This document shows positions 16,441 through 45,841 of a stretch of DNA of 64,000 bases, in pieces. Every line of letters begins with the position of its first letter. Position 1 is the first letter of the stretch. The DNA is taken from assembly GCA_018062705.1 (NCBI GenBank), contig JAGORQ010000002.1:7450-71449 (forward strand), in the 5' to 3' direction. The notes below the pieces were generated by a model, which was given only the letters and a program-made list of their open reading frames with translations, was not told where the DNA came from and searched no databases. A program made the translations under genes and the position numbers. Origin of the DNA: Candidatus Shapirobacteria bacterium (GTDB taxonomy: Bacteria > Patescibacteriota > Microgenomatia > UBA12405).

Positions 16441-17160
16441 ATGAATAAGAAATTGTTTTGCGTTTTGATGGCAGGGATCTTATTCCTTGCTGCTTGTGGC
16501 ACACCTGCTACAAGTATCACCCCGACTGTTGCACCAGTTGTGGCAACAGAAACCCCCACCTCAGCCCCAACCCCTACTTTGGAGCCCACCAATACTCCCA
16601 CCCCGGAGCCCCTTTACTTCGAAATGGATCTATATCTAGCTCAAAAGCAGGACAATCAGTGGGGGATTGGTCACACAACAGAAGAGAGGTGTAAAATTAC
16701 ATTGGATGAGGATGGCAGTAATAGTGCTATCAGGAAATTTCTACTGAACTGTCAATATGATACGGAAAATTCTATTAAGTTTCCGTTTTTGGTCCAGGTA
16801 GTTCATAACGCACAGCAATCCATCGAAACAGTCATGGAAACTAGGGTGGAGCAAATAAGTGTGGTCGCCTACGACTGCACCACACTGAGAGACGGTGGGT
16901 TTCAGTCGATTTCGACTCACTTCAACGGCGCCACAACTATTGGCTTCAGTTTGATCGAAGGAAGGGGTGTATTGCATTACGACGATGCGGGCAATTCGGA
17001 GGCGAGTGAAATGGTGAACGCGACAGTTCCGTCTCTTGGTAACAATCAAGCGTATCTGTTCATCTCCTCTGATGCAAGTAACGTGTTTATCCAAATTTGG
17101 GACATCATGTGTAACGAGCAGTTGTTCCAAAAGGAGACAGTCATTATCTCCTATCCCTAG
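16441..17160 (+). CDS. lipoprotein with PT-rich linker, hypothetical
   Basis: MNKKLFCVLMAGILFLAACG lipobox; TPTPEP linker; SD aaaggag. Confidence 0.65.
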   Translation: MNKKLFCVLMAGILFLAACGTPATSITPTVAPVVATETPTSAPTPTLEPTNTPTPEPLYFEMDLYLAQKQDNQWGIGHTTEERCKITLDEDGSNSAIRKFLLNCQYDTENSIKFPFLVQVVHNAQQSIETVMETRVEQISVVAYDCTTLRDGGFQSISTHFNGATTIGFSLIEGRGVLHYDDAGNSEASEMVNATVPSLGNNQAYLFISSDASNVFIQIWDIMCNEQLFQKETVIISYP

Positions 17161-17168
17161 TCCGCACG

Positions 17169-17240
17169 CCTCGGCACAACCCAAAAATTGGGTCTCTCGA
17201 AAGAGAGACCCGATCAATGGATGTGCTGAGGAAATTTTTA
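17169..17240 (+). terminator. long imperfect palindrome plus T-run (terminator), paralog of 16067-16135
   Basis: cctcggcacaac...gggtctctc gaaa gagagaccc...atgtgctgagg aaatttttata. Confidence 0.6.
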
Positions 17241-17293
17241 TAACAACTTACATTATTTTAGAATTTAGGTTTTAGAGTTTAGAGTTTTTTGCC

Positions 17294-17452
17294 TCAAGCC
17301 TCTCCCAGTCTCTTGTTCAACTTATCCCACACAATATCCGTCAGATTATCCAGCGCGCTAATTATCACTTTTCGCTGATGTTTCGGTTTTTTCTTCTCCG
17401 CTTCTTCCAAATCAACTTTCCAGATTACTTCAATTGGTTCCTGAATTTGCAT
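17294..17452 (-). CDS. small hypothetical protein (52 aa), possible operon partner of 17470..18510
   Basis: MQIQEPIEVIWKVDLEEAEKKKPKHQRKVIISALDNLTDIVWDKLNKRLGEA; found by hand, below the track cutoff. Confidence 0.25.
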   Translation of the reverse strand: MQIQEPIEVIWKVDLEEAEKKKPKHQRKVIISALDNLTDIVWDKLNKRLGEA

Positions 17453-17469
17453 TCAATCATTATACCATC

Positions 17470-18510
17470 TCATTTCACATACTTGTCAGTCACCGCCGAC
17501 ACGTAGGCCACGAAATTATTATCCCCCTCAAATACAAACACTGGTTGCATGTAATTGGTCAAGTTCATCGGTTCAAAAAACGCCAAATAAATTTTTCTAA
17601 TGGTGGCACTATTGCCCACCGAATCATACGCTGGCCAGTAATTTCCTATTTTAAGGTCATTTACTGCCTGATCAACCGTTTTTATCGGGTAAGTTCCAAA
17701 CGACTCTCGATCAATTGGTGAATAACGGTAATTTACTTCAATTGCTTTTCGGTTTTGAATTGATGAACCTGTCAGCACCACCGACACCGTCGCCGAGTTA
17801 ACATCAGCGGTTACGATTTTATATTTACTCTCCAAGTCTTGTCGGAAAAAATCCACTCTCGTAACATTAGCTTCTGATTGCGACGACACTGCCTTCAATC
17901 CACTATATTCAATTTTCCAAAACGACACTTTTTGCAACCCGCCCACCAGATCGGTTGGCAGTTTGTCCGCTTGGCCCAAATACGACTTTGCTTCCAGTAG
18001 CGCTTCATCTTTACTCAGCACTTTTTCTGGGTTAAGCAGCATTTGATCAGTTTCGTAGGGGTATTTCAAATGAAAACTCCCATCCAACACATTCATGGTT
18101 AGTTTCAGACTCGAAGTACTATTAGTAAATTCATAAATACCGTAGCCAACTTCTTTGGGCTCATCTTTAAAGCCCAAATCAGCCGCCGTCTTTTTGTCTT
18201 GCTCCAAGGCCAAAAATGCTGTATCCGGTCTAGCCACAAAATAGACTCTAAATTTGTCATCTACTGTGGGGAACTTATCATTGGGCATTTCAAAGGTGAA
18301 ATTCTTTTTATCAAATTTTTTTGCTGGGAACTGAATCTTGGGCAACACTCCATATCGGGTATCGGGCGGAACGTATGGTGGATGGGCTGCAATCCAGGCA
18401 TTTATCCCCCAGGTAATTACTGTATATAGCACAAAAAAGCTTCCAAAAATAACTCCACTGTACTTCACCAATCTCCGGGTGACATAGGCGGTATAAGTTA
18501 ACGACGACAT
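17470..18510 (-). CDS. hypothetical membrane-anchored protein (N-terminal TM)
   Basis: 346 aa ORF, one N-terminal TM, no recognisable motifs. Confidence 0.6.
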   Translation of the reverse strand: MSSLTYTAYVTRRLVKYSGVIFGSFFVLYTVITWGINAWIAAHPPYVPPDTRYGVLPKIQFPAKKFDKKNFTFEMPNDKFPTVDDKFRVYFVARPDTAFLALEQDKKTAADLGFKDEPKEVGYGIYEFTNSTSSLKLTMNVLDGSFHLKYPYETDQMLLNPEKVLSKDEALLEAKSYLGQADKLPTDLVGGLQKVSFWKIEYSGLKAVSSQSEANVTRVDFFRQDLESKYKIVTADVNSATVSVVLTGSSIQNRKAIEVNYRYSPIDRESFGTYPIKTVDQAVNDLKIGNYWPAYDSVGNSATIRKIYLAFFEPMNLTNYMQPVFVFEGDNNFVAYVSAVTDKYVK

Positions 18511-20162: not shown

Positions 20163-20918
20163 TTGCTACACTATTTTGTGCTTTTAATTTTATTTTTACT
20201 CTCACTCTTTTCTCGCCCAGTCTTTGCCCTCGACCCGATTGCCAAAATCACCAACTTTTCTTCCGACACCTCACCTGAATGGGTCGAGATTACCAATCTT
20301 TCCAGTCAAACAATTGATTTATCCAATTGGAAAATCCGCGACAGTAATAATCAAACAGGCGACGATATCATTATCACCGGTTGTTTGTCGCCAAGTAACA
20401 CTCAAGTTTTTTCCAAAAATTCCAGCTGGCTAAACAATACTGGCGACACCATCTCTCTTTACAACTCCACCGACACTCTAGTTGACCAACTAACTTATTC
20501 TGTTGGTAAAACTGGCGATGCACCAGCATCAACCAATACTTGTGTTCCCACCTCAACTCCAACTCTCACTCCATCTCCAGTTCCCGCCACCAACACACCT
20601 CATCCCACCTCTACTCCTACCGCTACTCCCACCAATACCCCAGTCCCAACCTCCACGCCAACTCGCACGCCGACACCGACTCAAACACCTACTCCCACTC
20701 CCACCAGTGAACCCACACCCATCGACTCGCCAATGCCAACGGCGACGGCGGTCACCGATTTGCCAATTGATATTTCCGGCCCAATCGATTCGGCAACTCC
20801 GACCAAAGCACCAGCCAAATCTTCAAAATTCAACTCCCAAATTCTTCCAACTATTTTTATTATCATTGGCGGTTTGCTTCTAGTTGTCCCTCTAATCATT
20901 TCCAAAATCAAAAAGTGA
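20163..20918 (+). CDS. secreted lamin-tail-domain (LTD) protein with PT linker and C-terminal TM anchor
   Basis: EWVEITNLSSQTIDLSNWKIRD...ISLYN LTD pattern; TPTPTQTPTPTPT linker; TTG start at 20163, or GTG at 20178. Confidence 0.65.
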   Translation: MLHYFVLLILFLLSLFSRPVFALDPIAKITNFSSDTSPEWVEITNLSSQTIDLSNWKIRDSNNQTGDDIIITGCLSPSNTQVFSKNSSWLNNTGDTISLYNSTDTLVDQLTYSVGKTGDAPASTNTCVPTSTPTLTPSPVPATNTPHPTSTPTATPTNTPVPTSTPTRTPTPTQTPTPTPTSEPTPIDSPMPTATAVTDLPIDISGPIDSATPTKAPAKSSKFNSQILPTIFIIIGGLLLVVPLIISKIKK

Positions 20919-21277
20919 CCAAAATTTACCGCTATATTCCAGCTTTTCTTTGGATGTGCTTTATTTTTTACCTGTCTTCCCGCCAAACTACTGGCATTCA
21001 CAGTGTTGTCGTCAATCGGTTTTATATTCTCAAAACTTTTCACCTTGTCGAGTATGCTATTTTAGCTATATTGTTGTTTTACGCCACCCTGTCACATTTT
21101 TCTACCATCCTAATTGCCTACCTCTTCTCCATCACTGATGAGTATCATCAGCTCTTTACTTCCGGCCGTTCCGGACGGCTCTACGATACCCTATATGATT
21201 TAATCGGAGTAGCTATTGGATTAATAATAATTTTAACAATAAAATCAATTTTTAGCTTGAAAAATACTCAAAAGTAA
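20915..21277 (+). CDS. VanZ-like family membrane protein
   Basis: DEYHQLFTSGRSGRLYDTLYDLIGVAIG; GTG start overlapping the upstream stop. Confidence 0.65.
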   Translation: MTKIYRYIPAFLWMCFIFYLSSRQTTGIHSVVVNRFYILKTFHLVEYAILAILLFYATLSHFSTILIAYLFSITDEYHQLFTSGRSGRLYDTLYDLIGVAIGLIIILTIKSIFSLKNTQK

Positions 21278-21347
21278 CTACACATCTATCTAGTAGCAGT
21301 TTGAATTATCTTACTGTAAAATACGTCCATATAACTTTTTTCAATAG

Positions 21348-22382
21348 ATGTCTTCACAGAAGCTTAAAATTTCTATTCTCATACCTTGCTACAACGAGGA
21401 AAAATCCATCCGGTCTTCAATCAATGCTTGCTTAGCTCAAACCCGTCCCTTTGATCAAATTTTAGTTGTCAATGATTGTTCCACCGACAACACCCTAAAA
21501 ATACTAAAAACATTTGGCAAAAAAATTCAAGTTATTGATCTCAAAGTACACGCTGGCAACAAAAGTTACGCCCAAGAACAAGGTTTGCCCTATATTACGG
21601 GTGATATTTTTGTCGCCACTGATGGCGATACCCTTCTCGACCCCAAGTTTAATGAAATTATCGAGTCAGACTTCAAGGACAAAAAAGTTGCGGCAGTCGC
21701 CGGATATGTCCGCAGCCTCAAATACAACTGGTTGACCATGTGCCGGGCTTTTGATTACGTTATTGGTCAAAATATTCACAAGTTAGCCCAAAAATACCTT
21801 GGTTATATTTTTGTTATTCCCGGTGCCGCCAGCGCTTTTCGCACCAATGTTTTCAAAAAGTATATTGGTTTTGATCACGACACTATCACCGAAGATCTGG
21901 ATTTTACCTACAAACTCCACAAAAACAATCTTTATATTCATTACAACAATAAAGCTATTGTCTACACCCAAGACCCCGATACTCTTCGTTCATATATAGG
22001 ACAAATGCGACGCTGGTATGGTGGCGGTTGGCAAAATCTGGTAAAACACATCAATAATGATTTAGTTGAGGATCCTCGTCGGGTACTTGAGTTGTCACTA
22101 ATTTATGTTGAAGGTGTAGTTTTTTCATTTTTAATTTTTCTTGTCCCACTTCTCAATATTCTTTGGGCCGTCAAATTCTTTCTACTCTTGACTATTATAG
22201 TAGCCATAGAAGCCATTCTAGCTTCAATTATTGAAAAAAGACTCGATTTCTTACTTATACCTTTTATCTATCCTTTTATGATGTACGTTAATAGTTATGT
22301 CTCTTTAGAGCAGTTTATCAAGGAGGGGATTTTAAAATCTAAAAACCTTGTTTGGTATCACCCAGCTCGCCGTGAAATATGA
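21348..22382 (+). CDS. family 2 glycosyltransferase, processive-synthase type (QxxRW), with C-terminal TM
   Basis: ILIPCYNEE, DCSTDNT, ATDGDT, QMRRWYGG (QxxRW). Confidence 0.8.
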   Translation: MSSQKLKISILIPCYNEEKSIRSSINACLAQTRPFDQILVVNDCSTDNTLKILKTFGKKIQVIDLKVHAGNKSYAQEQGLPYITGDIFVATDGDTLLDPKFNEIIESDFKDKKVAAVAGYVRSLKYNWLTMCRAFDYVIGQNIHKLAQKYLGYIFVIPGAASAFRTNVFKKYIGFDHDTITEDLDFTYKLHKNNLYIHYNNKAIVYTQDPDTLRSYIGQMRRWYGGGWQNLVKHINNDLVEDPRRVLELSLIYVEGVVFSFLIFLVPLLNILWAVKFFLLLTIIVAIEAILASIIEKRLDFLLIPFIYPFMMYVNSYVSLEQFIKEGILKSKNLVWYHPARREI

Positions 22383-22485
22383 TGTTTGTACCCGGTTTAT
22401 CACTCTTGGTACATTTGTTAATAATTTTTGTTGGTTTTGTCGGCACCACAATCAAAAATATTTGGCAAAAAATAAATTAATCTAT

Positions 22486-22929
22486 ATGAAAAAAATACTT
22501 TCACTCACTGTTTTTATTGCCATTTTCTCACTGGTATCTTATACCGCTGGTTTCACTCTGGACAAATGTCTCACCGAACGCTCAAATATAACACTCGTGG
22601 CCGAAGCACTTAAATTAGGTACCGTGCCAGTTATTGCCCAGTTACCCTCAGACTCATCAGTCTTAGGGGAATCAATTGTGGCACCATCGCCCACACCAGA
22701 CCCTGTCAAGATTTCTCAAATACTACTCTCTTGTCAACCAAAAATTTACTCCGGATATTCGGTTGTTAACTATTATTTAGACAACAAATTAGACTATTCG
22801 TTTGATTCTCGTACCCAAGACGCTTTAACTTATGGTATAAAAAACTATACAGGTACCGCTGATCAGAATTCAAAATTATTGCAGTATTTAACCCAAAAAC
22901 AGGTCAAAATATGTCTCGATTCAAATTAA
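22486..22929 (+). CDS. secreted hypothetical protein
   Basis: Signal peptide [21 protein letters not shown]; the track ORF starts at 22348, overlapping the previous gene. Confidence 0.55.
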
Positions 22930-25900
22930 ACTTAATTCGATCTTTACTTTTCCTTTTTGTTTTTGTAGGTTTTCGCCTGGCTTTCCCCGACTTTTCTAGT
23001 ACCCAAACAGACAATTTAATCAGTAACTCATCAGTTGAAACACCCTCAGTTGGTACCACCCTCCCTCTCGACTGGTATGTAGACAATTGGGGTACCAACA
23101 AAGCAGTTTTTACCTATCCTGTGGCCGGTTATGTTGGTAGTGGCGTCAAGGTTCAGCTTACCTCCCGAACCAGCGGCGATGCCAAATGGTATTTCAAAGA
23201 AATACCAGTAACCGCCTCAAAAACTTACACCTTCACTGATTATTATCAATCAAATGTCGTCAGCTCAGTTGTCGTTGCCACTGTCACCACTACCGGTTCC
23301 TATGTCTACACCACACTGGCAAATCCAGCAATCGCTGCCAATTGGACTAAATTTACCGTCAACTTTACTACACCTGCCAATGCCTCAAAGGTTACTGTTT
23401 ACCACCTCATCAACAAAGTTGGTTGGTTATCTACCGATGAATTTTCTTTAGTCCCGCTGGTCACCCAGACTCCTACTCCCACTTTGACACCCACCATTAC
23501 TCCAACCCACCCACCAACCCCCACTCCTAGCCTCGTTCCCACAGCAACCATCACTCAAATCCCGACTCCGACACCTACAGTAACTGTTGGCAATGTCGTT
23601 CCCAACCCCGGTTTTGAAACCGTTTCTGGCTCCTTGCCAGCCAGTTGGTCGAAGCTAAAATGGGGCACCAACACTACCACTTTTTCCTACCTAACTACCG
23701 GTCACACCGGCTCCCGTTCTGCCAAGGTTCAAACCACCAAATACACCAATGGTGATGCCAAATGGCAATTTACCTCTGTCCCAGTGACTCCTGGTGATTC
23801 TTACCAATTTTCTGACTGGTACAAATCAAACATTGTCACCCATATGGTCGTTAAATTTGTCTTAAACGACAATACTGAGTTTTACCTCGGACTCCACGAT
23901 GCACCAGCATCAACAAACTGGACTCAATACTCTGATAGTTTTGAAGTACCTGCCAACGCCAAAAATATGACTGTATTGCATTTAATTTCCGCGGTGGGCA
24001 CATTAACTATCGACGATTTTTCCTTAGTCAAATACACTCCTACTCCTCTAAATCGCACCTTAGTTACCCTAACTTTTGACGACGGCTGGGAAGACAATGT
24101 CACTACTGTTTTACCCATTTTAAAGTCCAACAATATCCCAGTTACTTACTATTTTGCCACCACTTTTTTATCCAATTCACCTCATACTGGAGCTATCAAT
24201 GTCTCCGGTGATCAGGCAGTTTTATCTGTGTTTAACAATGGTAACGAAATTGGTTCTCATTCAGTCACACACCCTGATTTAACAACTTTGAATGCTACCC
24301 AATTAAATTCCGAGATTACTGATTCCAAAAATTATCTCGAGAACCTCATTGGTACCGGCAGGGTTACCAGCTTTGCCACTCCATACGGTGCCTACAACAC
24401 TACTTCGCTTAATGCCCTCAAAACTCTCTACCGCAGTCATCGTCCCACCGATGAAGGTTTCAATACTGGTGATAGTTTGGATCCTTATCGCCTCAAAGTC
24501 CAAAATATGCTCTCTGATACCACCTTAAGCGAATTCCAGAGTTGGGTTGATCAAGCCATCAAAGACAAGTCTTGGTTGGTACTTGTTTACCACCGTGTTG
24601 CCACCACCAATCTTGATGCTTATGACACTAATCTAGTCGATTTTCAAAATCAACTAAATTATCTTTTATCCAAGAATGTCACTTTCAAAACCGTCAGTGG
24701 TGCTTTGGATGAAATTGCTGGAATTCTTCCAACCTCTACTCCCACCAACACTCCCACCAATACACCCACTAATATTCCTACCAACACCCCAACACTAATT
24801 CCCACAAATACGCCTACATCGACACCCACCAATACTCCAACTTTAATTCCAACTAACACTCCAACAGTAATCCCTACAAATACTCCAACAATGACACCAA
24901 CCAACACTCCCACCAATACCCCAACAATCACCTTAACTCCGACAGTCACTCTTGCTCCCACCATCACTCCCACCGTTGGTCCTACTACCATTCCTATCTA
25001 TCCCACCCCCACATATTTTCCTGCTCCAACTCCCGGTCCAAATTTAGTCCCCAATAACTCACTCGAAACCGCCAACTCTGCCAATGCAAATTTACCAGAT
25101 TCTTGGAATACAGGTAATTGGGGCACAAACACTCCAGTCTTTACCTATCCCGTCCCTGGTGTTGATGGAGCTTCCGCTACCAAAGTCGAACTAACTTCAT
25201 TTACTGATGGTGACGCTAAATGGTATTTTAATGACGTTTCTGTTAATCCTGGTACAATCTACAATTTTTCCAATCAATATCAGTCAAATGTGGCTACTCG
25301 AGTAGTTGTCCGTTTCCATCATGATGCCGGCAACGATAATTATCAGGATATCGCTACCCCACCCTCTTCTGCTAGTTGGACTAGTACTTCCGCCAATATC
25401 ACCATTCCTGCTGATGTCCACACAATTACAATCTTTCACCTCATCGAACAGGTTGGTTATTTAGTTGTCGATAATTACTCACTTCGTGCATCAGCGACAG
25501 CTAATACTCCCTTTTCCCAAGGTATGGTTACCTTATCTTTCGATGATGGTTGGAACTCGGTCTTTCAAAACGCCATTCCCATACTCAATTCCAAAAATTT
25601 CAAAAGTACCCAATTTTTAACCACCACCTTTTTAGATAATTTGGCTGATGGTTACATGTCACTCACCAACGCTCTTACCATGCAGTCCCAGGGACATGAA
25701 ATCGGTGCCCATACCAAAACACACCCAGATCTCAACACGCTCACCGAGTCACAAATTATCAATGAAGTTACCGGCTCTCGCCAAGACCTTTTGTCACTTG
25801 GTTTCAATCCAGTCAAGTCGATTGCGCCTCCTTTTGGTAATGCCAACAGTACTGTCATGCAAATTATCAAGCAATCAGGCTTTACCACATCTAGGACTGC

Positions 25901-26180
25901 TAATCCCGAGGATGCTGGCTATAATTACAAAAACACCGACCCCTTTCAACTAAAAAATCAATCAATGGAAATATCCACCACACTTGATCAAGCTAAATCG
26001 ATGATCGACTCCGCTCGAAGCAATAACAGTTGGCTAATCATGGTATTCCATCAAGTTGACACTAGTGGTGGACAATATTCAGTTTCACCCGCTTTACTCC
26101 AAGGTATCGCCGATTATCTCCAGTCTACCTCTACCACTGTGGTCACTCTCTCTCAAGGTCTCAATGCCATGTTGAATTAA
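22911..26180 (+). CDS. secreted 1089-aa protein with three CBM-like beta-sandwich modules, two polysaccharide deacetylase (NodB/CE4) domains and PT linkers
   Basis: TFDDGWEDN...[10 protein letters not shown] and SFDDGWNSV...[10 protein letters not shown] NodB motifs; three repeats of ...GDAKW(Y/Q)F... Confidence 0.75.
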
Positions 26181-26189
26181 CTCACTCTC

Positions 26190-27158
26190 ATGACCCGAGG
26201 TATAAATACTTTAAAAACTTTTCTTGCGCTATCAATAATAATGACAGTAGCTGGCTGTAACACAACTCCTGTCCCAGTAATTGCTGAAACCGCCACTCCT
26301 GTCAGTTCCCCACCCGACACCCCAACACCTCGACCAACATCAACGCTACTGCCCACAGAAACAGCTTTTCCTTCGCAGGTTCCTGAAGCTACAAACAGTA
26401 ATAATAAGTTAAATATTGGACTATTTGCCGGAGACGCCGCTGAAACCAAAAAATTAATTGACGAAATTGGGGTTGCACCAGATATGTTAGCTACCTTTAT
26501 AGGTCTAGATGGAAGTGGTGACATTCATCAGGAAATGGTTGACCTCGCCAAGAAAAATAAAACTGGCCTAGTAATATATCTAGAGACAAATGAGACCAAT
26601 TCTCAAATGCTTGATACCGAAACCAATGAGTGGTTAACAAAAATTGCCGAAAAATTAGAAGAATCAGAAGTGCCTACAATTGTCGTCTTTTTACCTGAGC
26701 CAAATTTGAGAGGTGAAGACATTCCTTGGGCAGACGGTACGGCTGATAATAGTCCGGAAAAATTTAAAAAAGTCTGGGCTATGGCGCATGAAATTTTCAA
26801 AGACAAAAAAAATATTAAATTAGCTCTTGCCTTAAACGAAATCCAGTCAGGTGACAACTCTACTGCCTATATCCCGCCGGCAGACCAAGTAGATATCTAT
26901 GGTGTCGACGCTTTTCGTTGGCCGGACGATCCTCGAACTACTGAAGACATGTTTACCTCAACTTTAGATTTGTTTGCCAAGACCGGCAAACCAATGTGCG
27001 TATTTTCTACTGCAACCAGCACCGACAAAGCCAAGTGGTACCAGGAAGCCCTCGATTATGCTAAAAAACAAAAATTACACTGTGTTATGTTTTTTAATGT
27101 TAAGAAAGAAAACGATTGGACTGCTCCAAAAGAAATACTTAGAGATGCTCTTAACTAG
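26190..27158 (+). CDS. lipoprotein, GH26-like glycoside hydrolase (putative)
   Basis: Lipobox TVAGCN; VVFLPEPN...W and QVDIYGVDAF align with motifs of the two neighbouring GH26-like proteins. Confidence 0.45.
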   Translation: MTRGINTLKTFLALSIIMTVAGCNTTPVPVIAETATPVSSPPDTPTPRPTSTLLPTETAFPSQVPEATNSNNKLNIGLFAGDAAETKKLIDEIGVAPDMLATFIGLDGSGDIHQEMVDLAKKNKTGLVIYLETNETNSQMLDTETNEWLTKIAEKLEESEVPTIVVFLPEPNLRGEDIPWADGTADNSPEKFKKVWAMAHEIFKDKKNIKLALALNEIQSGDNSTAYIPPADQVDIYGVDAFRWPDDPRTTEDMFTSTLDLFAKTGKPMCVFSTATSTDKAKWYQEALDYAKKQKLHCVMFFNVKKENDWTAPKEILRDALN

Positions 27159-27192
27159 ATAGCATATCCTCTGGCAACTAAATCATGTTGAA

Positions 27193-28152
27193 TTAATTTT
27201 CTTCTCTTCCAGTCAGTATTTTCAGAGTTGACTCAGAGATTTGCCAATCGGGTGTTGGTAAGTCACCCCAAACACCAGGGTGATCAGTTGAGTTAAAATA
27301 AACCAGTCCATCTAGAAGCGGAAACCTGTTAAAACTTTTTGTTGCACCTTCTAACCATTTTTTTTGCATTTCTTCTGATCCGTAAACCCCTAATTCTGCA
27401 ATAATTATCTTCTTTTTGTAATTTTTTACCAATTCATACTTACTAGAAAGTAAGTCAAAAAATGTCGAGCCGTAGTCTTTCTGCCAGTCGGGATAGTAAT
27501 AAATAGACAGTCCAACATAATCCACATAGCTTTCACCTGGATAATATTCTTTTAAATTTTTGTTGCCTGCAGGTGACCACATATATTTAACCTGCTCTGC
27601 CCGCTTTCTACAAGTATCGACAAAATGCTTGTAGGATTCAATGTATTTTTGCGGATTTCCCCCAGACCAAGTGTATCTTCCGGACGGCATATCCATTTCG
27701 TGCCCCCATCGAATAATAACATCTGGATATTTAGCCAAATTGTCACACATTAGATTAACTTTTTCATCATATCTCCCTGCCCGAATGTCATCGAACAACT
27801 GGCTGGAATCACTGTTGCTAGAAAAAATTGGCCATGGCTCAAGCGTTATCAAAATATTCTTTCCAGAGTCGCGTATTTTGTCTAACTGCTCTGAAGTATA
27901 TTTTGTGTCGTAGTTATTCCAACCGACAAACACATGTTGAATCTCAATTCCTTCTAATGCCGACAGTCGTGAATTGTAGTCATATAGTCCAATTATCACT
28001 TTTTGAGGTGCGAAAAGACTGCAGGCAGAAAGTAAAATAGTCAAAAATTCAATCCCAATTAGCTTGGTTAACTGTAGTAAGTTGCTCACAACTGCAATTA
28101 TCTCAAAATTCAAAGAAATATTATTTTTTACATTGTCGGTGATATAATACAC
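27193..28152 (-). CDS. glycoside hydrolase family 26-like protein
   Basis: IRWGHEMDM (GH26 R-x-G-H-E-x-N region), YVDYVGLSIY, IIIAELG. Confidence 0.6.
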   Translation of the reverse strand: MYYITDNVKNNISLNFEIIAVVSNLLQLTKLIGIEFLTILLSACSLFAPQKVIIGLYDYNSRLSALEGIEIQHVFVGWNNYDTKYTSEQLDKIRDSGKNILITLEPWPIFSSNSDSSQLFDDIRAGRYDEKVNLMCDNLAKYPDVIIRWGHEMDMPSGRYTWSGGNPQKYIESYKHFVDTCRKRAEQVKYMWSPAGNKNLKEYYPGESYVDYVGLSIYYYPDWQKDYGSTFFDLLSSKYELVKNYKKKIIIAELGVYGSEEMQKKWLEGATKSFNRFPLLDGLVYFNSTDHPGVWGDLPTPDWQISESTLKILTGREEN

Positions 28153-28159
28153 CCATAAT

Positions 28160-30109
28160 ATGAATTATAAGACAGTAAAACCAGTCATGACAAGGCGTGA
28201 AGGCTGGTTTTATACCTTCTTGGTTGTATCCTGGTTGATATCCGTATTATATTTTTGGATCTGGTGGCTCAATCCGTCTAATATAATTTCCTCTTATGGG
28301 CTGATAGTTAACAGCTTGCTTGTTTCTTGGACAATGCTTATGCCGGGGTACTATTTTTACTTTGTTTCAAAGATGAAAGAACCAACTTTTCCAAAAACTC
28401 TACCAAAAAAATGGCGAGTAGCCATGATTGTTACTAAGGCGCCAGCTGAGCCGTTGTCGATGGTAAAGAAGACACTTCTAGCAATGATAAGTCAAAAATA
28501 TCCACACGATACCTGGGTAGCCGACGAGGATCCGACAATAGAGGCTATTGCCTGGTACGAAAAACATAACGTAAAACTTTCTACCAGAAAAGGGGTACCT
28601 GATTATCACCAGAACAGTTGGCCAAGAAGAACCAAATGTAAAGAGGGGAATTTGGCGTATTTTTATGACAAGTTCGGCTATAGCCAATACGATATAGTTT
28701 GCCAACTAGACGCAGACCATGTGCCCCAAAAAGACTATTTAGAGCATATGATAAGTCCGTTTGTTGAAGAGGATGTGGGTTATGTTGCCGGACCAAGTAT
28801 TTGTGATGCAAATATAGATGTTAGTTGGGTTGTTCGGGCGAGAATGTATGCTGAGGCAACGATGCACGGGAGTCTACAGGCAGGCTACAATAGTGAGGGT
28901 TGGGCACCACTCTGCATTGGTTCACATTATGCAGTTAGAACTGTTGCCTTAAGGCAAATAGGTGGAATCGGACCAGAATTAGCTGAAGATCACACTACTA
29001 CCCTAATGATGAATTCAAATGGCTGGAGGGGTGTTTTTGCATTTAATGCAATTGCTCGAGGTGATGGAGCCACCAATTTTAGTGACAGTATGTTGCAGGA
29101 GTTTCAGTGGTCAAAAAGCCTAGTTATAGTCCTCTTGTCAATTACAAAAAAGTACTGGAATGGATTAACCCCAAAACTAAAATTTCAATTTGCTTTTTCA
29201 CAGTTGTGGTACCCACTCTTTGCGTTTTGTATGCTGACATCCTACCTTCTTCCTCTAATTGCAATTATTCGTGGTCAACCTTGGGTCAATGTAAATTATC
29301 TAGAATTTGTCCTTCACAATTTTTTGTCCAGCTCAATTTGCATTCTAATTGTTTGGTGGATTTCGTCAAAAGGCTGGCTCCGTCCCAAATATGCCAAATT
29401 TATCTCTTGGGAGACAATATTATTTCAACTTGCACGCTGGCCATGGGTTTTAATTGCCTGTATTAGTGCAATAATCTGTGTAGTTTTCAAAAGAGAGTTC
29501 AAAATCAAGGTAACACCCAAGTCATCGACAGTTACAACTTTACCGATAAAAATAACAACTCCTTACTTCATACTAACTGCTTTACCCATTATAGTTATTT
29601 GCTTAAGCAAAGATACACCCTCAAACAGAGGCTATTTCTATCTAGCGCTCACAAGTGCTTTTTCTTACGGGCTTCTTTTAATAAACATCAATTGGTTGCA
29701 CATCAAAAATATATTAAGGGATGGCGAAAAAATAAGAATTATCGATTGGTGGCCTCAATTTTATCTAGGTAGTTTTGCCGCGTTTTTGCTATTTTTTGGT
29801 GCTTATCAACGTGGACAAACAGCGATTTTGGCTACTTTCTTTAGCGCTTCACCCGATTATTATTTAGCTTCTAGTTATAGTGCAAACCTTACAAAACAGC
29901 CAAAAAATAGCCAAAAATTAAAAATCTATACAATAAAAAGTGGCGACAATCTTTGGAATTTGTCAGTTAAAGAGTATCAAAATGGTAGTTGTTGGAAGGA
30001 AGTTCACAAGGTTAATCAAGACAAGATAAAATCTACTTCAAGCATCAAAATCGGCACTAAAATACTTCTTCCAAACATAAATGGGAATATCAGTGCTTTT
30101 TGTAAGTAG
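28160..30109 (+). CDS. cellulose-synthase-like processive GT2 with C-terminal LysM domain
   Basis: QLDADH, AEDHTTT, QEFQWSKS (QxxRW variant); multiple TM; LysM: YTIKSGDNLWNLS...IKIGTKILLP. Confidence 0.75.
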   Translation: MNYKTVKPVMTRREGWFYTFLVVSWLISVLYFWIWWLNPSNIISSYGLIVNSLLVSWTMLMPGYYFYFVSKMKEPTFPKTLPKKWRVAMIVTKAPAEPLSMVKKTLLAMISQKYPHDTWVADEDPTIEAIAWYEKHNVKLSTRKGVPDYHQNSWPRRTKCKEGNLAYFYDKFGYSQYDIVCQLDADHVPQKDYLEHMISPFVEEDVGYVAGPSICDANIDVSWVVRARMYAEATMHGSLQAGYNSEGWAPLCIGSHYAVRTVALRQIGGIGPELAEDHTTTLMMNSNGWRGVFAFNAIARGDGATNFSDSMLQEFQWSKSLVIVLLSITKKYWNGLTPKLKFQFAFSQLWYPLFAFCMLTSYLLPLIAIIRGQPWVNVNYLEFVLHNFLSSSICILIVWWISSKGWLRPKYAKFISWETILFQLARWPWVLIACISAIICVVFKREFKIKVTPKSSTVTTLPIKITTPYFILTALPIIVICLSKDTPSNRGYFYLALTSAFSYGLLLININWLHIKNILRDGEKIRIIDWWPQFYLGSFAAFLLFFGAYQRGQTAILATFFSASPDYYLASSYSANLTKQPKNSQKLKIYTIKSGDNLWNLSVKEYQNGSCWKEVHKVNQDKIKSTSSIKIGTKILLPNINGNISAFCK

Positions 30110-30112
30110 TAT

Positions 30113-31279
30113 TTACTGCACCACGCTCTTGAAGGCATCGAGTGAATCAGTCGAAGACCAAATTAGCCAGTTCTTTTCTTTGTTTTCATTAAACCAAATC
30201 CAACCTTGAACTTTTGGATGTTTGTAGACCTCTTGCCCTAGTCCGGTTCTAATCCAATTACCTTTTTCTGAACCTTCTGCACTTGCAGTTGAAAAAATCA
30301 TAATTGGCTTGTTCATTGTTTCTAGTTTTGATAACCCCGAGGCAAACACTTGAGCAAAACTCATCCAGGGTGAACCAAAATTGAATCCATTAGTTCCTAC
30401 TATGTCAACATAAGCATCTCCGGGGTAATAGTCTGTGAATTGGTTCCCTGGCACATTTGGGTCTGAGTCACTGTTAATTGTCCAGGCAAACTTTACATTG
30501 GCAACATCATTAAAATACCCTCGTACATATCTATAAGCCGCAATATGTTTGGCGGGTGTATTACCATTAACTGTTCCTCCCCATGGGTACCAGTTGCCGT
30601 TCATTTCTTCAAACGGAATCAAAATCACTTGCCCTCCAAAGTTTCTGGCTTGATTGGCAAAACTTGTCAAATATGCGTTCCAATCACCCCGCAAAATCGC
30701 ATCATAATTAAACCTAGTATCGTTTACCCCATTAAAGTTGTAGTCCATCGCCTCCCAAAAAATCACCAAGGTTTGACCTCGAGATTTAGCCAAGTTACCC
30801 AAATCCAAAGGTAGTGCATTTTCGTTGCCCCAGTGGACAAAAGTTGCCAAATAATTCCCCACCTTGCCTACTCGAGCCTCCAAGTCTTTCACTTGGGTTG
30901 TAGTCCAGCCAGTGTAGTAACCCCATTTCATCCCAGCGCTAGTTCCACCACCGGTTGGTACCAGAGTCGGCGTGTTTGAAGGCTTAATCGTTGGTGTGGC
31001 GGTTGGTCTTGGAGTAGCTGTACTGGTTGGTCGAATTGTGACTGTTGGCTTAACCGTTGGTGAGGCGGTTATCTTAGCTGTTACAGTTGCTGTGATTGAT
31101 GCAATCACAGTGGGAATAGTTGTCAGTCTCGGTGTCATAGTCGGTGTCCATTTACGTTTGTTCCAGTTTCTCGCCCCCAAAACATTAGTGGTTGGGTTGT
31201 AAATTATTTTCAAAGTTGTCAATAATCCAACTAAAAACAACGCCGAAACAATGGCAATAAATACATGCTTTTTCTCCAT
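30113..31279 (-). CDS. membrane-anchored GH26-like glycoside hydrolase with T/P-rich linker
   Basis: VILIPFEEMNGNWYPW, YVDIVGTNGF; N-terminal TM. Confidence 0.55.
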   Translation of the reverse strand: MEKKHVFIAIVSALFLVGLLTTLKIIYNPTTNVLGARNWNKRKWTPTMTPRLTTIPTVIASITATVTAKITASPTVKPTVTIRPTSTATPRPTATPTIKPSNTPTLVPTGGGTSAGMKWGYYTGWTTTQVKDLEARVGKVGNYLATFVHWGNENALPLDLGNLAKSRGQTLVIFWEAMDYNFNGVNDTRFNYDAILRGDWNAYLTSFANQARNFGGQVILIPFEEMNGNWYPWGGTVNGNTPAKHIAAYRYVRGYFNDVANVKFAWTINSDSDPNVPGNQFTDYYPGDAYVDIVGTNGFNFGSPWMSFAQVFASGLSKLETMNKPIMIFSTASAEGSEKGNWIRTGLGQEVYKHPKVQGWIWFNENKEKNWLIWSSTDSLDAFKSVVQ

Positions 31280-31370: not shown

Positions 31371-32705
31371 ATGCGGTCAAAAAATCTTTCCGTACTGTCT
31401 TTTGCCCTAGTAGCTGCCGGTGCGATGTTTACCCCCGCTCCCGCCCAAGCCTTCGACTTTGGCCAGTTTGTCGGGTCTTTTTGGAATCATTCCATCAATC
31501 CACCAGCCGTTACTCTGTGTATTAAAAATTCTGGTGCAGTGTATGTAGTTGGGGAGGGCTTTAGAAAAGCCGATTGTAAAAAAAATGATCAGTTAATTAG
31601 CTTAAATCTCAAAGGCGCCACTGGCGACAAAGGTCCCACAGGCAATCCGGGGCCTGCCGGTCCCCAGGGTCCAGCCGGTGTTCCAGGTATTGCCGGTCCC
31701 CAGGGCGACAAGGGTGCCACTGGCGATCAGGGAAGTGCTGGTCCCGCTGGTCCTCAGGGTTTAGTTGGTGATCAGGGGCCTTTAGGTCTAAAAGGTGCTA
31801 CCGGTAATCAGGGACCCCAGGGCGACAAAGGTCCTGTCGGCGACCAAGGTCCTGCTGGCCCGGCTGGTCCTCAGGGTGCAGAAGGACCACAGGGTGCTGT
31901 TGGTCCCCAGGGTCCAGCTGGCCCTGGCGGTATTGATGGAAATATAGGACCTATTGGTCCTGTTGGTCCTGCTGGCCCCCAAGGACCTATCGGTCCCCAA
32001 GGTGATGTTGGCCCTATGGGCGCCACCGGCCCCCAGGGTCCCCAGGGTGACACTGGTGCCAAGGGAGAAGTGGGCGACAAAGGTGATACCGGAGCTGTTG
32101 GTGAACAGGGCGCCACCGGTCCCCAAGGACCCGAGGGCAAGCAAGGCCCCCAGGGTTCAAAAGGTGATCAAGGCGATCAAGGTCCCCAGGGACTAACAGG
32201 CAATAATGGTCAAAACGGCCAAGATGGCAAATCAGCCTATGATCTGGCCAAAGAAAATGGATATACCGAAGATATTACTGAATGGCTCCTCAGTTTCAAG
32301 GGTGAAAAGGGCAAAGACGGCACAAACGGTCAGGATGGCGCTCAGGGTATTGAAGGACCACGCGGTCTTCCTGGAGTCGCCGGTCTTCAAGGTGATATCG
32401 GACCTATTGGTCCTGCTGGTGCCAACGGTACCAATGGTGTTAGTGGTTGGGAAATCAAATTTAGTACTGTTTCCAGTGATGATGAATTGCTAAAAACAAA
32501 AGTAGCAGATTGCACTGCTGGCAAAAAAGTGATCGGTGGCGGATTCAAAACCATTGATGCAAGCGACTCAAGCGAAATCGTCGTCACCAATAACTATCCT
32601 CTCGATGGCGATTCTTGGACTGCTACTGCTGGCATCGATAGTAGCTCAGGTGGTGATCAGAGTTTTGCTTTACAAACATATGCCATCTGCATCTCCGCTC
32701 TGTAA
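31371..32705 (+). CDS. collagen-like (G-X-Y repeat) secreted protein with C-terminal globular domain
   Basis: About 230 aa of uninterrupted GXY triplets (GPQGPAGVPGIAGPQGDKG...); signal peptide; 110-aa non-collagen C-terminus. Confidence 0.8.
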   Translation: MRSKNLSVLSFALVAAGAMFTPAPAQAFDFGQFVGSFWNHSINPPAVTLCIKNSGAVYVVGEGFRKADCKKNDQLISLNLKGATGDKGPTGNPGPAGPQGPAGVPGIAGPQGDKGATGDQGSAGPAGPQGLVGDQGPLGLKGATGNQGPQGDKGPVGDQGPAGPAGPQGAEGPQGAVGPQGPAGPGGIDGNIGPIGPVGPAGPQGPIGPQGDVGPMGATGPQGPQGDTGAKGEVGDKGDTGAVGEQGATGPQGPEGKQGPQGSKGDQGDQGPQGLTGNNGQNGQDGKSAYDLAKENGYTEDITEWLLSFKGEKGKDGTNGQDGAQGIEGPRGLPGVAGLQGDIGPIGPAGANGTNGVSGWEIKFSTVSSDDELLKTKVADCTAGKKVIGGGFKTIDASDSSEIVVTNNYPLDGDSWTATAGIDSSSGGDQSFALQTYAICISAL

Positions 32706-32842: not shown

Positions 32843-33700
32843 GTGAAATTCCACTGGCATCATTTATTTGTCCCTCACGAACACAACAACCACCGCGCTT
32901 GGCTACTCCAACCCTACGCTATCGGTTTGTTTATCGCCGTCTATTTACTCAACCAATCCTTTATTAAATCACTGACCATCATTCGTCCGGGAGTTCTCGG
33001 CTATTCCTCTGAAATTACCCCTCAAAAAGTTTTTGATGACACCAATATTGAACGAGAGAAGCAGGGTTTGCCAGCTCTTAAATACAACCCCGCCCTGTCC
33101 GTTTCCGCCACCAAAAAAGCCCAAGACATGTTTCGTAATAATTATTGGGCTCACACCTCTCCTACCGGCACCACTCCTTGGGACTTTTTCAAAGCCGAAA
33201 ATTACCAATATTCAGTTGCTGGTGAAAACCTCGCCAAAGATTTTTACGACACTGATGGAATGATGAAAGCGTGGATGAATTCACCGACTCATCGGGCAAA
33301 TATAGTTTCTGGCAAATATCTAGAAATTGGCATTGGTGTGGTCAACGGTATCCTCAACGGCGTTCAAACCACCCTGGTGGTTCAACATTTCGCCACTCCT
33401 CTGGCCATAATAGGCAACGAACCTGCCCCCACCGATTATCAACGCGCTTCGCAATTTTTAGCCAATCAAAAAGTTTTGGCCGACACCAGTGTTGGTCGGC
33501 CCATTATCAGTCCTCTCAAAATTAGCCAAATAATCGGCGTAATTATGTTTGTAATAATTATTGGCACCTTAATTGTTGATGCCTATGTTAGCCTCACTCG
33601 CCAAACTCCTCGGCTTACCGGCTCGTCCTACGGTCACGTCGGCTATCTTTTTATAATACTTATCTTATTAATTGCCTCTCGACAGGGAATAATTTTTTAA
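32843..33700 (+). CDS. CAP/SCP (YkwD-like) domain protein with TM anchors
   Basis: YWAHTSPTG...VAGENLA...WMNSPTHRANIVSGKYLEIGIGV; GTG start. Confidence 0.7.
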   Translation: MKFHWHHLFVPHEHNNHRAWLLQPYAIGLFIAVYLLNQSFIKSLTIIRPGVLGYSSEITPQKVFDDTNIEREKQGLPALKYNPALSVSATKKAQDMFRNNYWAHTSPTGTTPWDFFKAENYQYSVAGENLAKDFYDTDGMMKAWMNSPTHRANIVSGKYLEIGIGVVNGILNGVQTTLVVQHFATPLAIIGNEPAPTDYQRASQFLANQKVLADTSVGRPIISPLKISQIIGVIMFVIIIGTLIVDAYVSLTRQTPRLTGSSYGHVGYLFIILILLIASRQGIIF

Positions 33701-34718: not shown

Positions 34719-35663
34719 TTATCTCACTTGTGGCAATGCTGGTGTAATTTCAAGAGTGGCCTCACTGGATCTTGGTTTTAACTTCAAAAATACATTTCCA
34801 GAAACTATTTCATTTGAATATTGTAGTTTTGTACCAGTCAATCCTTCACCCAATCTAAAAGGAACCGTATATGTTGTTTCCAAATTAAGTCGGCCATAAT
34901 TAAGTACTGCTAGAGTAGTCGCCGCCGTACAACCAACAGGCTCACTCACATCGTTTCCTTGACCTGTAGGATCGTTAACTACCCAAATCATATTGTTTGC
35001 GTCCTCTCGACTAAATCCACCCCCTCTTATCTCTTCTGCATACAAAGATATCTCGGCAAACCTTCCTTCAAATACATCATCTGTGGAAGTGGAACTACGA
35101 ATACTAGTCGGTTGAATAAAAGTAACCAAGTCATATTTTTTCAAATAAGCTGTTTTATAAGCACGACTTATTAACTCTCTGTTAAATTTAGCTAATTTAG
35201 GATTGTTCTGTTCTTGCGACCTAACTTGGTAGACCTTTGATGACGGGACACCACGGTCAGACATCACAACTATTCGAGTAGACACAGTTGATCTAAATAT
35301 ATTTTCCGCAACATCTGAGCCAAACATGTCCCCTTCAAATATTAATTCTTGAAGTTTTCTCCTGGCCATCATAAAAACCGCCAACTGTTCTCGGGTATCA
35401 TCCCCAGCAAACCCTCCCTTTAAAAAATGTCTTGCGTCTAGATCACCCGGCACGCAATCAAGTCTTAATCGGGGAGGTTCCGCAGTAGTATATAAGTCAG
35501 CCATCTTATAAAAATTAAGTGCAGATAGTTCTGCAGCTTTTTGGGAAATAAATGTTTTACCGCCACCATTAGGTCCTTCATTGACAGTGTACAAAATTTT
35601 TTTATTACCATTCAATCTTGGCTTTTCTATAAGTTCTTTTTCAAAAAACTCCAAAAATGTCAT
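34719..35663 (-). CDS. P-loop kinase, thymidylate-kinase-like N-terminal domain plus unknown C-terminal domain (putative)
   Basis: NEGPNGGGKT Walker A; TTAEPP and DARHF resemble dTMP kinase motifs. Confidence 0.35.
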   Translation of the reverse strand: MTFLEFFEKELIEKPRLNGNKKILYTVNEGPNGGGKTFISQKAAELSALNFYKMADLYTTAEPPRLRLDCVPGDLDARHFLKGGFAGDDTREQLAVFMMARRKLQELIFEGDMFGSDVAENIFRSTVSTRIVVMSDRGVPSSKVYQVRSQEQNNPKLAKFNRELISRAYKTAYLKKYDLVTFIQPTSIRSSTSTDDVFEGRFAEISLYAEEIRGGGFSREDANNMIWVVNDPTGQGNDVSEPVGCTAATTLAVLNYGRLNLETTYTVPFRLGEGLTGTKLQYSNEIVSGNVFLKLKPRSSEATLEITPALPQVR

Positions 35664-35707
35664 CCACAGGATTATACAAAATCATTTACCGATGTATACT
35701 AATTAAT

Positions 35708-42167: not shown

Positions 42168-42238
42168 TACCCCGTCGGCTAATGGTAGGCCATTACGCTC
42201 TGAACGTAAGAATTGTGGTTCGAATCCATGCGGGGTAA
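42168..42238 (+). tRNA. tRNA-Gln (anticodon CTG), no encoded CCA
   Basis: Manual fold: acceptor taccccg/cggggta, D arm ggct-aatggta-ggcc, anticodon arm ttacg-CT[CTG]AA-cgtaa, T arm tgtgg-ttcgaat-ccatg, discriminator A. Confidence 0.8.
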
Positions 42239-44415: not shown

Positions 44416-44419
44416 ATTG

Positions 44420-45679: not shown

Positions 45680-45836
45680 TATATTTAATAAATCTATCTA
45701 ATTCAATTTTATTTATTCTATATTGTCGGCCTGCTTTGACTGATTCAAGCCTTCCAGAGCGGATCCATCGGTAAACAGTGAGGTATGCAACTTTGAGCAT
45801 TTTGGAGACTTCTTCGATTGAGTAATACTTGTCCAT
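45666..45836 (-). CDS. small HTH protein (excisionase/AlpA-like or controller), 56 aa
   Basis: MDKYYSIEEVSKMLKVAYLTVYRWIRSGRLESVKAGRQYRINKIELDRFIKYNDKK; found by hand; 14-nt overlap with the MTase start. Confidence 0.6.
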   Translation of the reverse strand: MDKYYSIEEVSKMLKVAYLTVYRWIRSGRLESVKAGRQYRINKIELDRFIKYNDKK

Positions 45837-45841
45837 ATTGG

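Follow-up and report, generated by a model that had tools for sequence, protein, structure and literature searches.

Do the genes for extracellular glycans clustered at nucleotides (nt) 20163-31279 of this stretch of DNA serve one pathway or more than one? The stretch, hereafter the window, comprises 64,000 nt from Candidatus Shapirobacteria, a lineage of the Candidate Phyla Radiation (CPR), whose members, with their tiny genomes, live attached to other cells and whose surface polymers are hardly known. A preliminary description had read the locus as a single island for a polymer of the poly-N-acetylglucosamine (PNAG) or chitin type. The nine open reading frames (ORFs) that it listed were found at the same coordinates, and its domain calls were matched by Pfam and NCBIfam models; the Pfam matches of the lamin-tail domain (LTD) protein, the VanZ-like protein, the 344-aa family 2 glycosyltransferase (GT2), the protein combining carbohydrate-binding modules (CBM) with carbohydrate esterase family 4 (CE4) domains, and the three glycoside hydrolase family 26 (GH26) proteins were all above the gathering score. 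Judged by the gene neighbourhoods described below, however, the window carries two independently conserved synthase modules side by side, not one PNAG/chitin pathway. Module 1 (21348-27158 plus 30113-31279) comprises the 344-aa synthase (GT2s), a small membrane-anchored protein, a giant secreted CBM/CE4 protein, and a GH26 protein designated GH26-B together with a divergent paralogue. Module 2 (27193-30109) comprises a longer, cellulose-synthase-like GT2 (GT2L) and a hydrolase designated GH26-A. Both modules are conserved and tractable, and both are candidates for the synthesis of wall or attachment glycans.

A second Shapirobacteria contig (L001) carries, in one block, counterparts of GT2s (75% identity), the small protein (35%), the double-CE4 protein (56%) and the 388-aa GH26-B (61%). 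The block is set in other genomic surroundings and lacks a cellulose-synthase-like GT2; its GH26-B gene directly adjoins the CE4 gene, and that of the window stands on the far side of module 2. A scan with an alignment of the GT2 family, limited to a single genome for each species, yielded 19 loci with close relatives of GT2s, all from CPR by sequence affinity (Saccharibacteria, Taylorbacteria, Zambryskibacteria, Portnoybacteria, Woesebacteria and Gracilibacteria), and 61 control loci with distant GT2s. The CBM-bearing giant protein was found next to the synthase at ten of the 19 close loci, with CE4 visible in five; neither this protein nor GH26-B occurred at any of the 61 control loci. The hit lists of GT2s and GH26-B had ten contigs in common, those of GT2L and GH26-B none. 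Since the parts recur together elsewhere and are missing from the controls, their grouping is more than chance. The evidence of L001 and of the ten loci with the giant protein supports the proposed logic of synthase, deacetylase and glycanase for module 1.

The pairing of GT2L with a GH26 protein of 319 aa proved to be a self-contained module, contrary to the idea of one pathway. Among 80 metagenome loci encoding GT2L, GH26-A is fused to the synthase in eight and encoded within 6 kb in 53 (61/80). In the latter, its gene usually overlaps the stop codon of the synthase; of the other 19 loci, most have short flanks. GH26-B, CE4 and GT2s were found at none of these 80 loci, nor GT2L at any of the 19 close GT2s loci. 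The closest LysM-bearing relatives of GT2L (L086, L090 and L091) have only GH26-A beside them. In the searches made here, module 1 occurred only in CPR genomes; module 2 is common to CPR, cyanobacteria and Chloroflexi.

The two ORFs at the left end had been counted as island members. No BLAST counterpart of the LTD protein (hydrophobic segments at aa 5-23 and 227-245) was found across loci L001-L023 or L086-L169, and one of the VanZ-like protein was absent from every related locus compared. By this comparison the two are neighbours, conserved members of neither module; the start of the VanZ ORF overlaps the LTD stop codon by 4 nt. Composition does not single out an island either: the G+C content of the region (0.40-0.43) equals that of its flanks, which rules out the reading as a horizontally acquired island. 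A strongly negative GC skew results from the codons of Pro/Thr linkers, one stretch of which is a degenerate tandem repeat. Spacers between the genes are very short, and a promoter and terminator scan left operon boundaries not clearly marked. Among sigma-70-like sites the region's best match, TTGTCA-18-TATAAT (11/12), is found upstream of GH26-A and within the first codons of GT2L, and is directed at the divergent GH26-A gene. Because the annotated starts of GH26-A and GT2L are only 7 nt apart, the true start of GH26-A is probably further downstream, before the LSAC lipobox.

Table 1. Features of the locus, in window coordinates.
Feature	Position (nt)	Strand	Description and matches
LTD surface protein	20163-20918	+	Signal peptide, lamin-tail domain, Pro/Thr linker, C-terminal transmembrane anchor; PF00932 4.6e-13
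VanZ-like small membrane protein	20915-21277	+	PF04892 4.4e-14, NF037970 3.2e-16
GT2s, module 1 synthase, 344 aa	21348-22382	+	PgaC/IcaA-like processive GT2; PF13641 3.2e-25
Small membrane-anchored protein, module 1, 147 aa	22486-22929	+	C-terminal module of about 50 aa
Giant secreted CBM/CE4 protein, module 1, 1089 aa	22911-26180	+	PF01522 4.6e-53 (two stretches), PF02018 6.9e-10
CBM1 of giant protein	23001-23465	+	
CBM2 of giant protein	23586-24026	+	
CE4-1 of giant protein	24036-24770	+	Followed by PTNT linker
CBM3 of giant protein	25026-25484	+	
CE4-2 of giant protein	25491-26177	+	
Divergent GH26-B paralogue, 322 aa	26190-27158	+	Lipoprotein (lipobox VAGC); PF02156 3.8e-8
Acid/base Glu170 of paralogue	26697-26699	+	
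Ser273 of paralogue	27006-27008	+	Nucleophile position
GH26-A, module 2 hydrolase, 319 aa	27193-28152	-	Lipoprotein (lipobox LSAC); PF02156 31.3 bits
GT2L, module 2 synthase, 649 aa	28160-30109	+	Cellulose-synthase-like GT2 with LysM-like tail; BcsA 4hg6 E 4e-13
Promoter-like site	28164-28193	-	
QEFQW of GT2L	29096-29110	+	
LysM-like tail of GT2L	29927-30073	+	
GH26-B, module 1, 388 aa	30113-31279	-	N-terminal transmembrane anchor, Pro/Thr linker, lichenase-fold barrel; CtLic26A E 2.8e-34
Ser330 of GH26-B	30290-30292	-	Nucleophile position
Acid/base Glu225 of GH26-B	30605-30607	-	

Which polymer might module 1 make? Among NCBIfam models GT2s scored best on TIGR03937 (PgaC_IcaA), with 152.6 bits compared to 68.9 for the runner-up family. 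It is 31% identical to Escherichia coli PgaC over 262 aa (E 1e-34) in an alignment that begins at PgaC residue 76, and starts at the end of PgaC's N-terminal helices. The catalytic GT2 motifs are present, QxxRW taking the form QMRRW (aa 219); columns D92/D94 and E182/D183 are invariant across the family, which is CPR-wide at 56-77% identity. In a structure model (pLDDT 91.3), a GT-A domain is accompanied by an interface helix with QMRRW and by three long C-terminal transmembrane (TM) helices. Hyaluronan synthases and BcsA are the folds nearest to it (TMq 0.72-0.78); by this model, then, GT2s is closest to channel-forming processive synthases.

Translation of the small protein most likely begins at 22486 (MKKIL...) and not at a TTG codon at 22348. 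It had no Pfam or NCBIfam match of its own, and 251 relatives were found. Behind its N-terminal anchor, the C-terminal module matches the C-terminal part of DUF3597; relatives carry this module as tandem repeats, alongside Amidase_2, Peptidase_M23, GH25 and LysM domains. Thus, it is probably a wall-binding module. At L001, L008 and L017 orthologues of the small protein are placed between the GT2s and CE4 genes.

The giant protein (PF01522, 178.9 bits) contains three CBM copies of about 150 aa, mutually 41-47% identical, and two CE4 domains that share 37% identity. The first CE4 domain has the motifs TFDDGW (aa 388), HSVTH (450) and LVLVYH (556), the second SFDDGW (aa 876), HTKTH (934) and LIMVFH (1042). 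A lack of the catalytic Asp/His triad would have spoken against the preliminary reading; the Asp-His-His metal triad and the catalytic Asp and His were found intact in both domains and are conserved in orthologues. The CBM module also occurs fused to GH26-B in the CPR proteins P0149, P0166 and P0199 (38-48% identity), and its presence in both kinds of protein argues that they address one glycan. The two halves of the protein are joined by the PTNT linker, coded by a degenerate tandem repeat of 12, 24 and 72 nt (24738-24932) that could vary in length between strains.

All three GH26 proteins, each tethered to the membrane by a TM anchor or a lipobox, exceeded the PF02156 cut-off of 20.2 bits (33.5 for the 322-aa, 31.3 for the 319-aa and 43.0 for the 388-aa protein), which keeps them within GH26 and clan GH-A as first described. 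Their description as hydrolases needs correction in that the 322-aa and 388-aa proteins have Ser in place of the nucleophile Glu; nor are the GH26 proteins of PNAG or chitin type, the match to CtLic26A, the lichenase of Clostridium thermocellum endoglucanase H, making them lichenase-type and not mannanase-type. The 388-aa protein aligns with CtLic26A, its best match in sequence as in structure, over the whole domain at 31% identity, its Ser standing opposite CtLic26A Glu222, a position where PDB 2cip carries Gln. An AlphaFold model of the domain (pLDDT 96.3) has eight strand-helix units forming a barrel, with the Ser on strand 7. Its top structural matches in PDB are all GH26, and CtLic26A (2bv9) superimposes with a TM-score of 0.88 and a root-mean-square deviation of 2.1 A, well ahead of any mannanase.

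The exchange is a property of the whole family. Among the best 120 database homologues of the 388-aa protein, nearly all from CPR, Ser stands at the nucleophile position in all. In a joint alignment of 72 GH26-B members with CtLic26A, the acid/base Glu and the Ser are both conserved in 72/72, together with the cleft residues N111, W114, W117, N186, W255 and K260. The His of the HE motif (CtLic26A His108) is replaced by E or S or retained as H; this variation gives no support to a fixed Glu-Glu pair comparable to the Asp-Glu pair of GH20. The 322-aa paralogue shares 24-28% identity with GH26-B homologues. Some homologues are fused to binding modules, CBM or PG_binding_1.

GH26 catalysis requires both Glu residues, and mutation of the nucleophile to Ala abolishes activity (PMC10470212). 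With Ser instead, GH26-B is barred from the classical double displacement and therefore cannot be a retaining hydrolase of the usual kind. Substrate-assisted catalysis by the N-acetyl group at C2 is the established route that dispenses with an enzyme nucleophile (PMC8819650). As this route relies on a 2-acetamido group, it would fit the partnership with a PgaC-type synthase and a de-N-acetylase. We tentatively propose, with less than even confidence, that GH26-B is an enzyme of altered mechanism, in which acid catalysis would combine with the substrate 2-acetamido group as nucleophile to trim or remodel the polymer. Removal of the nucleophile has reportedly turned a GH1 enzyme into a substrate-assisted N-acetylglucosaminidase. 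Two points tell against the proposal: the residue preceding the acid/base varies, leaving no fixed second carboxylate of the kind found in GH18, GH20 and GH84, and we know of no GH26 or clan GH-A enzyme that acts on N-acetylhexosamine (HexNAc) polymers or uses substrate assistance.

About as likely as this altered mechanism is a role without catalysis, in which the GH26-B proteins would serve as pseudoenzymes with lectin-like properties, binding the nascent polymer or holding it at the membrane without cleaving any bond. The inactivity of GH26 nucleophile mutants as hydrolases (PMC10470212) is in keeping with such a role, as are the loss of the nucleophile in every member of the family, the membrane tethering and the fusion of relatives to CBM and PG_binding_1. 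It is harder to reconcile with the acid/base Glu kept in 72/72 and the invariant Ser, because binding alone leaves a fixed Ser unexplained. Catalytically dead lectins, such as GH18 chitinase-like proteins, usually lose the acid.

A more far-reaching form of the enzymatic proposal, which we regard as doubtful, is that GH26-B represents a CPR-wide lineage of clan GH-A in which the nucleophile Glu has been permanently exchanged for Ser and enzymatic activity retained, either as an endo-N-acetylhexosaminidase acting through the acetamido group or as a glycosynthase-like transferase grafting the module 1 polymer onto the wall. The engineered GH26 glycosynthase Man26A E320G of Cellvibrio (PDB 1odz), a retaining clan GH-A barrel, likewise combines an intact acid/base with a small residue at the nucleophile position, and glycosynthases made by changing the nucleophile to Ser, Gly or Ala cannot hydrolyse their products (PMC8819650). 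These, however, are laboratory mutants that need glycosyl fluoride donors, whereas GH26-B is conserved as a lineage in nature, and no activated donor is known for it. As an endo-N-acetylhexosaminidase, GH26-B would be the first acetamido-nucleophile case in GH26 or clan GH-A. In either role it would form a CPR-specific wall-polymer machine with the synthase resembling PgaC and the giant CBM/CE4 protein, beside which the QExQW synthase and GH26-A would be a second polymer system, likewise uncharacterised and found in cyanobacteria too. Linked as it is to a HexNAc-type synthase and a deacetylase, this clade amounts to a natural experiment in glycosidase mechanism, be it substrate assistance, transfer or binding.

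What, in turn, might module 2 make? GT2L bears the DxD, TED and FFCGS-like motifs of BcsA as DADH, AED and LCIGS, and a gating loop of the FxVTxK kind, FKIKVTPK, at aa 447. At aa 313, where BcsA has QRGRW, it reads QEFQW; the claim that both synthases carry QxxRW therefore failed for the second, which has no arginine there. Across 32 family members Q313, E314, Q316 and W317 do not vary; likewise invariant in the family are the DxDH, KEGNLA, CxGS and AED columns and the TPK of the gating loop. The protein scored 69.3 bits on the BcsA model TIGR03030 (cut-off 699.1). No PilZ domain was matched in GT2L, and no BcsB was found at any GT2L locus examined. The family is large, extending at 48-64% identity across CPR, cyanobacteria, Chloroflexi and others, and ends in LysM, in GH26 or in nothing; at least 11 of its best 120 members have a C-terminal GH26 domain. 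GT2L itself, like GT2s, is 100% identical to a Candidatus Shapirobacteria protein at NCBI.

The LysM-like tail of the window's GT2L (aa 590-638) falls just short of the PF01476 cut-off (19.7 versus 20.9 bits), matches the NCBIfam LysM model at 1.3e-6 and LysM chains in PDB at E 0.003-0.03, and is supported by PF01476 matches on record for the homologues P0002 and P0003. An extra, ninth hydrophobic segment (aa 527-557) precedes it. Short members of the family end after the eighth BcsA-like helix, and every member bearing LysM or GH26 has one hydrophobic segment more. By homology to BcsA, we infer that the C-terminal LysM or GH26 domain lies outside the cell; the LysM of the window's GT2L would thus occupy at the extracellular C-terminus the place that GH26 takes in relatives, and its coupling of the synthase to peptidoglycan, as earlier suggested, is plausible.

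The HE motif, the acid/base Glu152 and the nucleophile Glu253 are all intact in GH26-A, and in its family (n=53) the acid/base Glu is present in 53/53 and the nucleophile Glu in 52/53. Its best PDB match is CtLic26A (E 4e-11), followed by a beta-1,3-xylanase (1.3e-8). GH26-A shares 49.5% identity with the divergent neighbour that GT2L-LysM, the closest LysM-bearing homologue, has in L086; with the GH26 domains that are part of GT2L fusions it shares 41.6% in Taylorbacteria and 34% in the cyanobacterium Pannus. As judged by these identities, it is the orthologue of the fused domains. In Taylorbacteria and Pannus the fused genes stand alone, so that synthase plus hydrolase appears to be a complete unit. 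The affinity of GH26-A to lichenase and beta-1,3-xylanase suggests a beta-glucan with non-cellulosic linkages, and from this the product of module 2 would be a polymer of beta-glucan type.

Taking both modules together, we consider it somewhat probable that two synthase-dependent systems for envelope glycans happen to adjoin in one Shapirobacteria genome, working as follows. The gene content, the folds, the state of the motifs and the conserved linkage and fusions are observed, whereas sugars, linkages, membrane topology and the chemistry of GH26-B are inferred. GT2s would polymerise a UDP-N-acetylhexosamine, most likely that of N-acetylglucosamine (GlcNAc), and thread the chain through its own three-helix membrane domain, with the small anchored protein and its wall-binding-type module standing beside it. 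The giant protein would dock on the polymer by its three CBMs while its two CE4 domains removed some of the acetyl groups, and the membrane-tethered GH26-B proteins would engage the same polymer, presumably a partly deacetylated poly-HexNAc. GT2L, for its part, would make and export a beta-linked glycan, which is probably a glucan whose linkages resemble those of lichenan; the ninth TM helix of the synthase would place LysM outside, able to hold the synthase to peptidoglycan, and GH26-A may cut or release the nascent chain as BcsZ does for cellulose.

For module 1, the nearest known counterparts are the pgaABCD and icaADBC systems for PNAG, which likewise combine a processive QxxRW GT2 with an extracytoplasmic CE4 de-N-acetylase and a glycanase component of barrel fold, in PgaB the C-terminal domain (PMC5933820). 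The differences are considerable, and several of them weigh against the proposed scheme. GT2s lacks the two N-terminal helices, no N-terminal TM helix being seen in the PgaC alignment or in the model; a PgaD/IcaD-type partner with two TM segments was not found, the adjacent small protein having a single TM segment and an extracytoplasmic module; the cyclic di-GMP element is missing; and equivalog cut-offs were all missed, that of TIGR03937 standing at 422.3 bits. The deacetylase is a 1089-aa protein with three CBMs and two CE4 domains, not PgaB- or IcaB-like: its CE4 domains score best on HfsH and PdaB models and weakly on PgaB, and the motif-3 Arg (RxPY) is replaced (FATPYG and IAPPFG here), with Ala or another residue in all ten aligned domains. 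CBM_4_9 modules, moreover, usually bind glucans or xylans. The glycanase-like partner is a GH26 protein without nucleophile as opposed to GH153, module 1 has no outer-membrane porin, and GH26-B lies next to GT2s at five of the 19 close loci, with Ser each time, many of the loci being truncated. A further difficulty lies in module 2, where the missing arginine of QxxRW, which in BcsA contacts the UDP diphosphate, means that the donor of GT2L may be unusual.

Could module 1 instead be centred on peptidoglycan? In that case CE4 would de-N-acetylate the cell's own murein in the manner of PgdA or PdaA, GH26-B and the small protein would bind or process murein, and GT2s would add a short wall-linked glycan in place of a free polymer. 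The CE4 domains match the PdaA and PgdA models as well as PdaB, PG_binding_1 occurs on GH26-B homologues, the module of the small protein is found on amidases, M23 peptidases and GH25 lysozymes, and lytic transglycosylases work by a single Glu without enzyme nucleophile. We nevertheless find this unlikely, given that GT2s has the fold and the QxxRW of processive, channel-forming synthases, that the CBMs are of the CBM_4_9 type and not murein-binding, and that the GH26-B cleft closely matches a beta-glucan lichenase.

It is distinctly unlikely that the CBM/CE4 and GH26 proteins are foraging or attack enzymes directed at environmental or host polysaccharides (acetylated xylan or mannan, mixed-linkage glucan, host walls), with the GT2 genes as mere neighbours. 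CPR bacteria do scavenge from their hosts (PMC10633639), CBM_4_9 and Pro/Thr linkers are typical of secreted polysaccharide-degrading enzymes, and CtLic26A, the nearest relative of solved structure, belongs to a degradative endoglucanase. Such a role is at odds with the linkage to synthases across phyla and the covalent fusion of GH26-A to GT2L, with the loss from GH26-B of the nucleophile that a degradative GH26 needs, and with the tethering of all three GH26 proteins to the membrane, from which they are not released. Most improbable of all is that the nine genes form one PNAG/chitin-type pathway acting on a single LysM-bound GlcNAc polymer by means of two synthases, a deacetylase and three hydrolases: the genes are contiguous, LysM binds GlcNAc-containing glycans and the GH26-B gene of module 1 sits beyond module 2, but the mutual exclusion of the modules at the 80 and 19 loci, the occurrence of module 1 alone at L001 and of GH26-A alone beside the three closest LysM-bearing relatives, and the character of GT2L, cellulose-synthase-like and neither PgaC- nor chitin-synthase-like, all speak against it.

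Within the scheme of two adjoining systems, module 2 may be compared with the cellulose synthase systems BcsA-BcsZ, clostridial CcsA-CcsZ and Streptomyces CslA-CslZ, which also pair a membrane GT2 (D, DxD, (T)ED, FxVTxK) with a dedicated extracytoplasmic endo-glycanase of matching specificity. GT2L differs in having QExQW for QxxRW and in lacking PilZ and BcsB; its hydrolase is a GH26 of lichenase type, as against GH8, GH5 and GH6, and in about 10% of the family the two are fused through the extra TM helix. The mixed-linkage glucan synthases BgsA of Sinorhizobium and RiGT2 of Romboutsia belong to the BcsA-like GT2s and produce, without BcsB, a beta-glucan that is sensitive to lichenase (PMC10374906). 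RiGT2, however, has QxxRW and PilZ, BgsA binds cyclic di-GMP, and neither has a reported GH26 partner; GT2L forms a separate family, and the PilZ and QxxRW of RiGT2 rule out orthology. Compared with CtLic26A, GH26-A keeps both Glu residues and is distantly similar, while GH26-B shares the barrel, the acid/base Glu and most cleft residues but has Ser at Glu222, lacks His108, and is membrane-anchored in a biosynthetic cluster rather than borne by a cellulosome. A link to the essential extracellular polysaccharide genes SEML1_0081-0083 of Southlakia epibionticum was ruled out, these being Wzy, GT2 and Wzx genes of a different pathway. The literature searched yielded nothing relevant on GT2-GH26 fusions, GH26 without nucleophile, GT2 with QxxQW or PgaC-like clusters of CPR, nor a description of either module. 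No member of the QExQW family, in which the synthase and its own hydrolase are often fused, is characterised in that literature, and the product of the family may be a new bacterial beta-glycan.

Proteins with a CAP/SCP domain are encoded beside a GT2L-type GT2 or GH26-B in the window (32843-33700, plus strand) and at L003 (9079-9921), L017 (7678-8700) and L089 (5112-6101), and the GH26-B homologue P0161 is fused to a CAP domain. As a third conserved component the CAP protein found no support, its occurrence being sporadic (L003, L017, L018, L089 and one fusion) and nil among the 80 metagenome GT2L loci. At L001, two genes from the module 1 synthase, lies a gene (16603-17925, minus strand) for a secreted protein of 440 aa. 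Its C-terminus is dockerin-like, and it has a Pro/Thr linker along with a pair of motifs (GNELG...ITES) that look like those of clan GH-A.

Between the GH26-B and CAP genes of the window, a plus-strand ORF (31371-32705) codes for a secreted collagen-like protein of 444 aa (Gly-X-Y, PF01391 2.7e-40) with a C-terminal globular domain; it was not found in related loci. Further plus-strand genes nearby specify an LCP (LytR-CpsA-Psr) ligase (38657-39892), a GT2-GtrA fusion (35657-36913) and BacA/UppP (14270-14998). As these are parts of a lipid-carrier-dependent route to wall glycopolymers, they may give the cell wall polymers in addition to the two synthase-dependent ones. The window also carries a gene run of ribosomal-protein size, gltX and trmD. 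At 42168-47008, directly after a tRNA-Gln (CTG), the minus strand encodes a large serine recombinase, an Eco47II-type restriction endonuclease and a C5 cytosine methylase; the segment is a trough in G+C (0.31 versus about 0.41) and looks like an integrated mobile element with a restriction-modification system.

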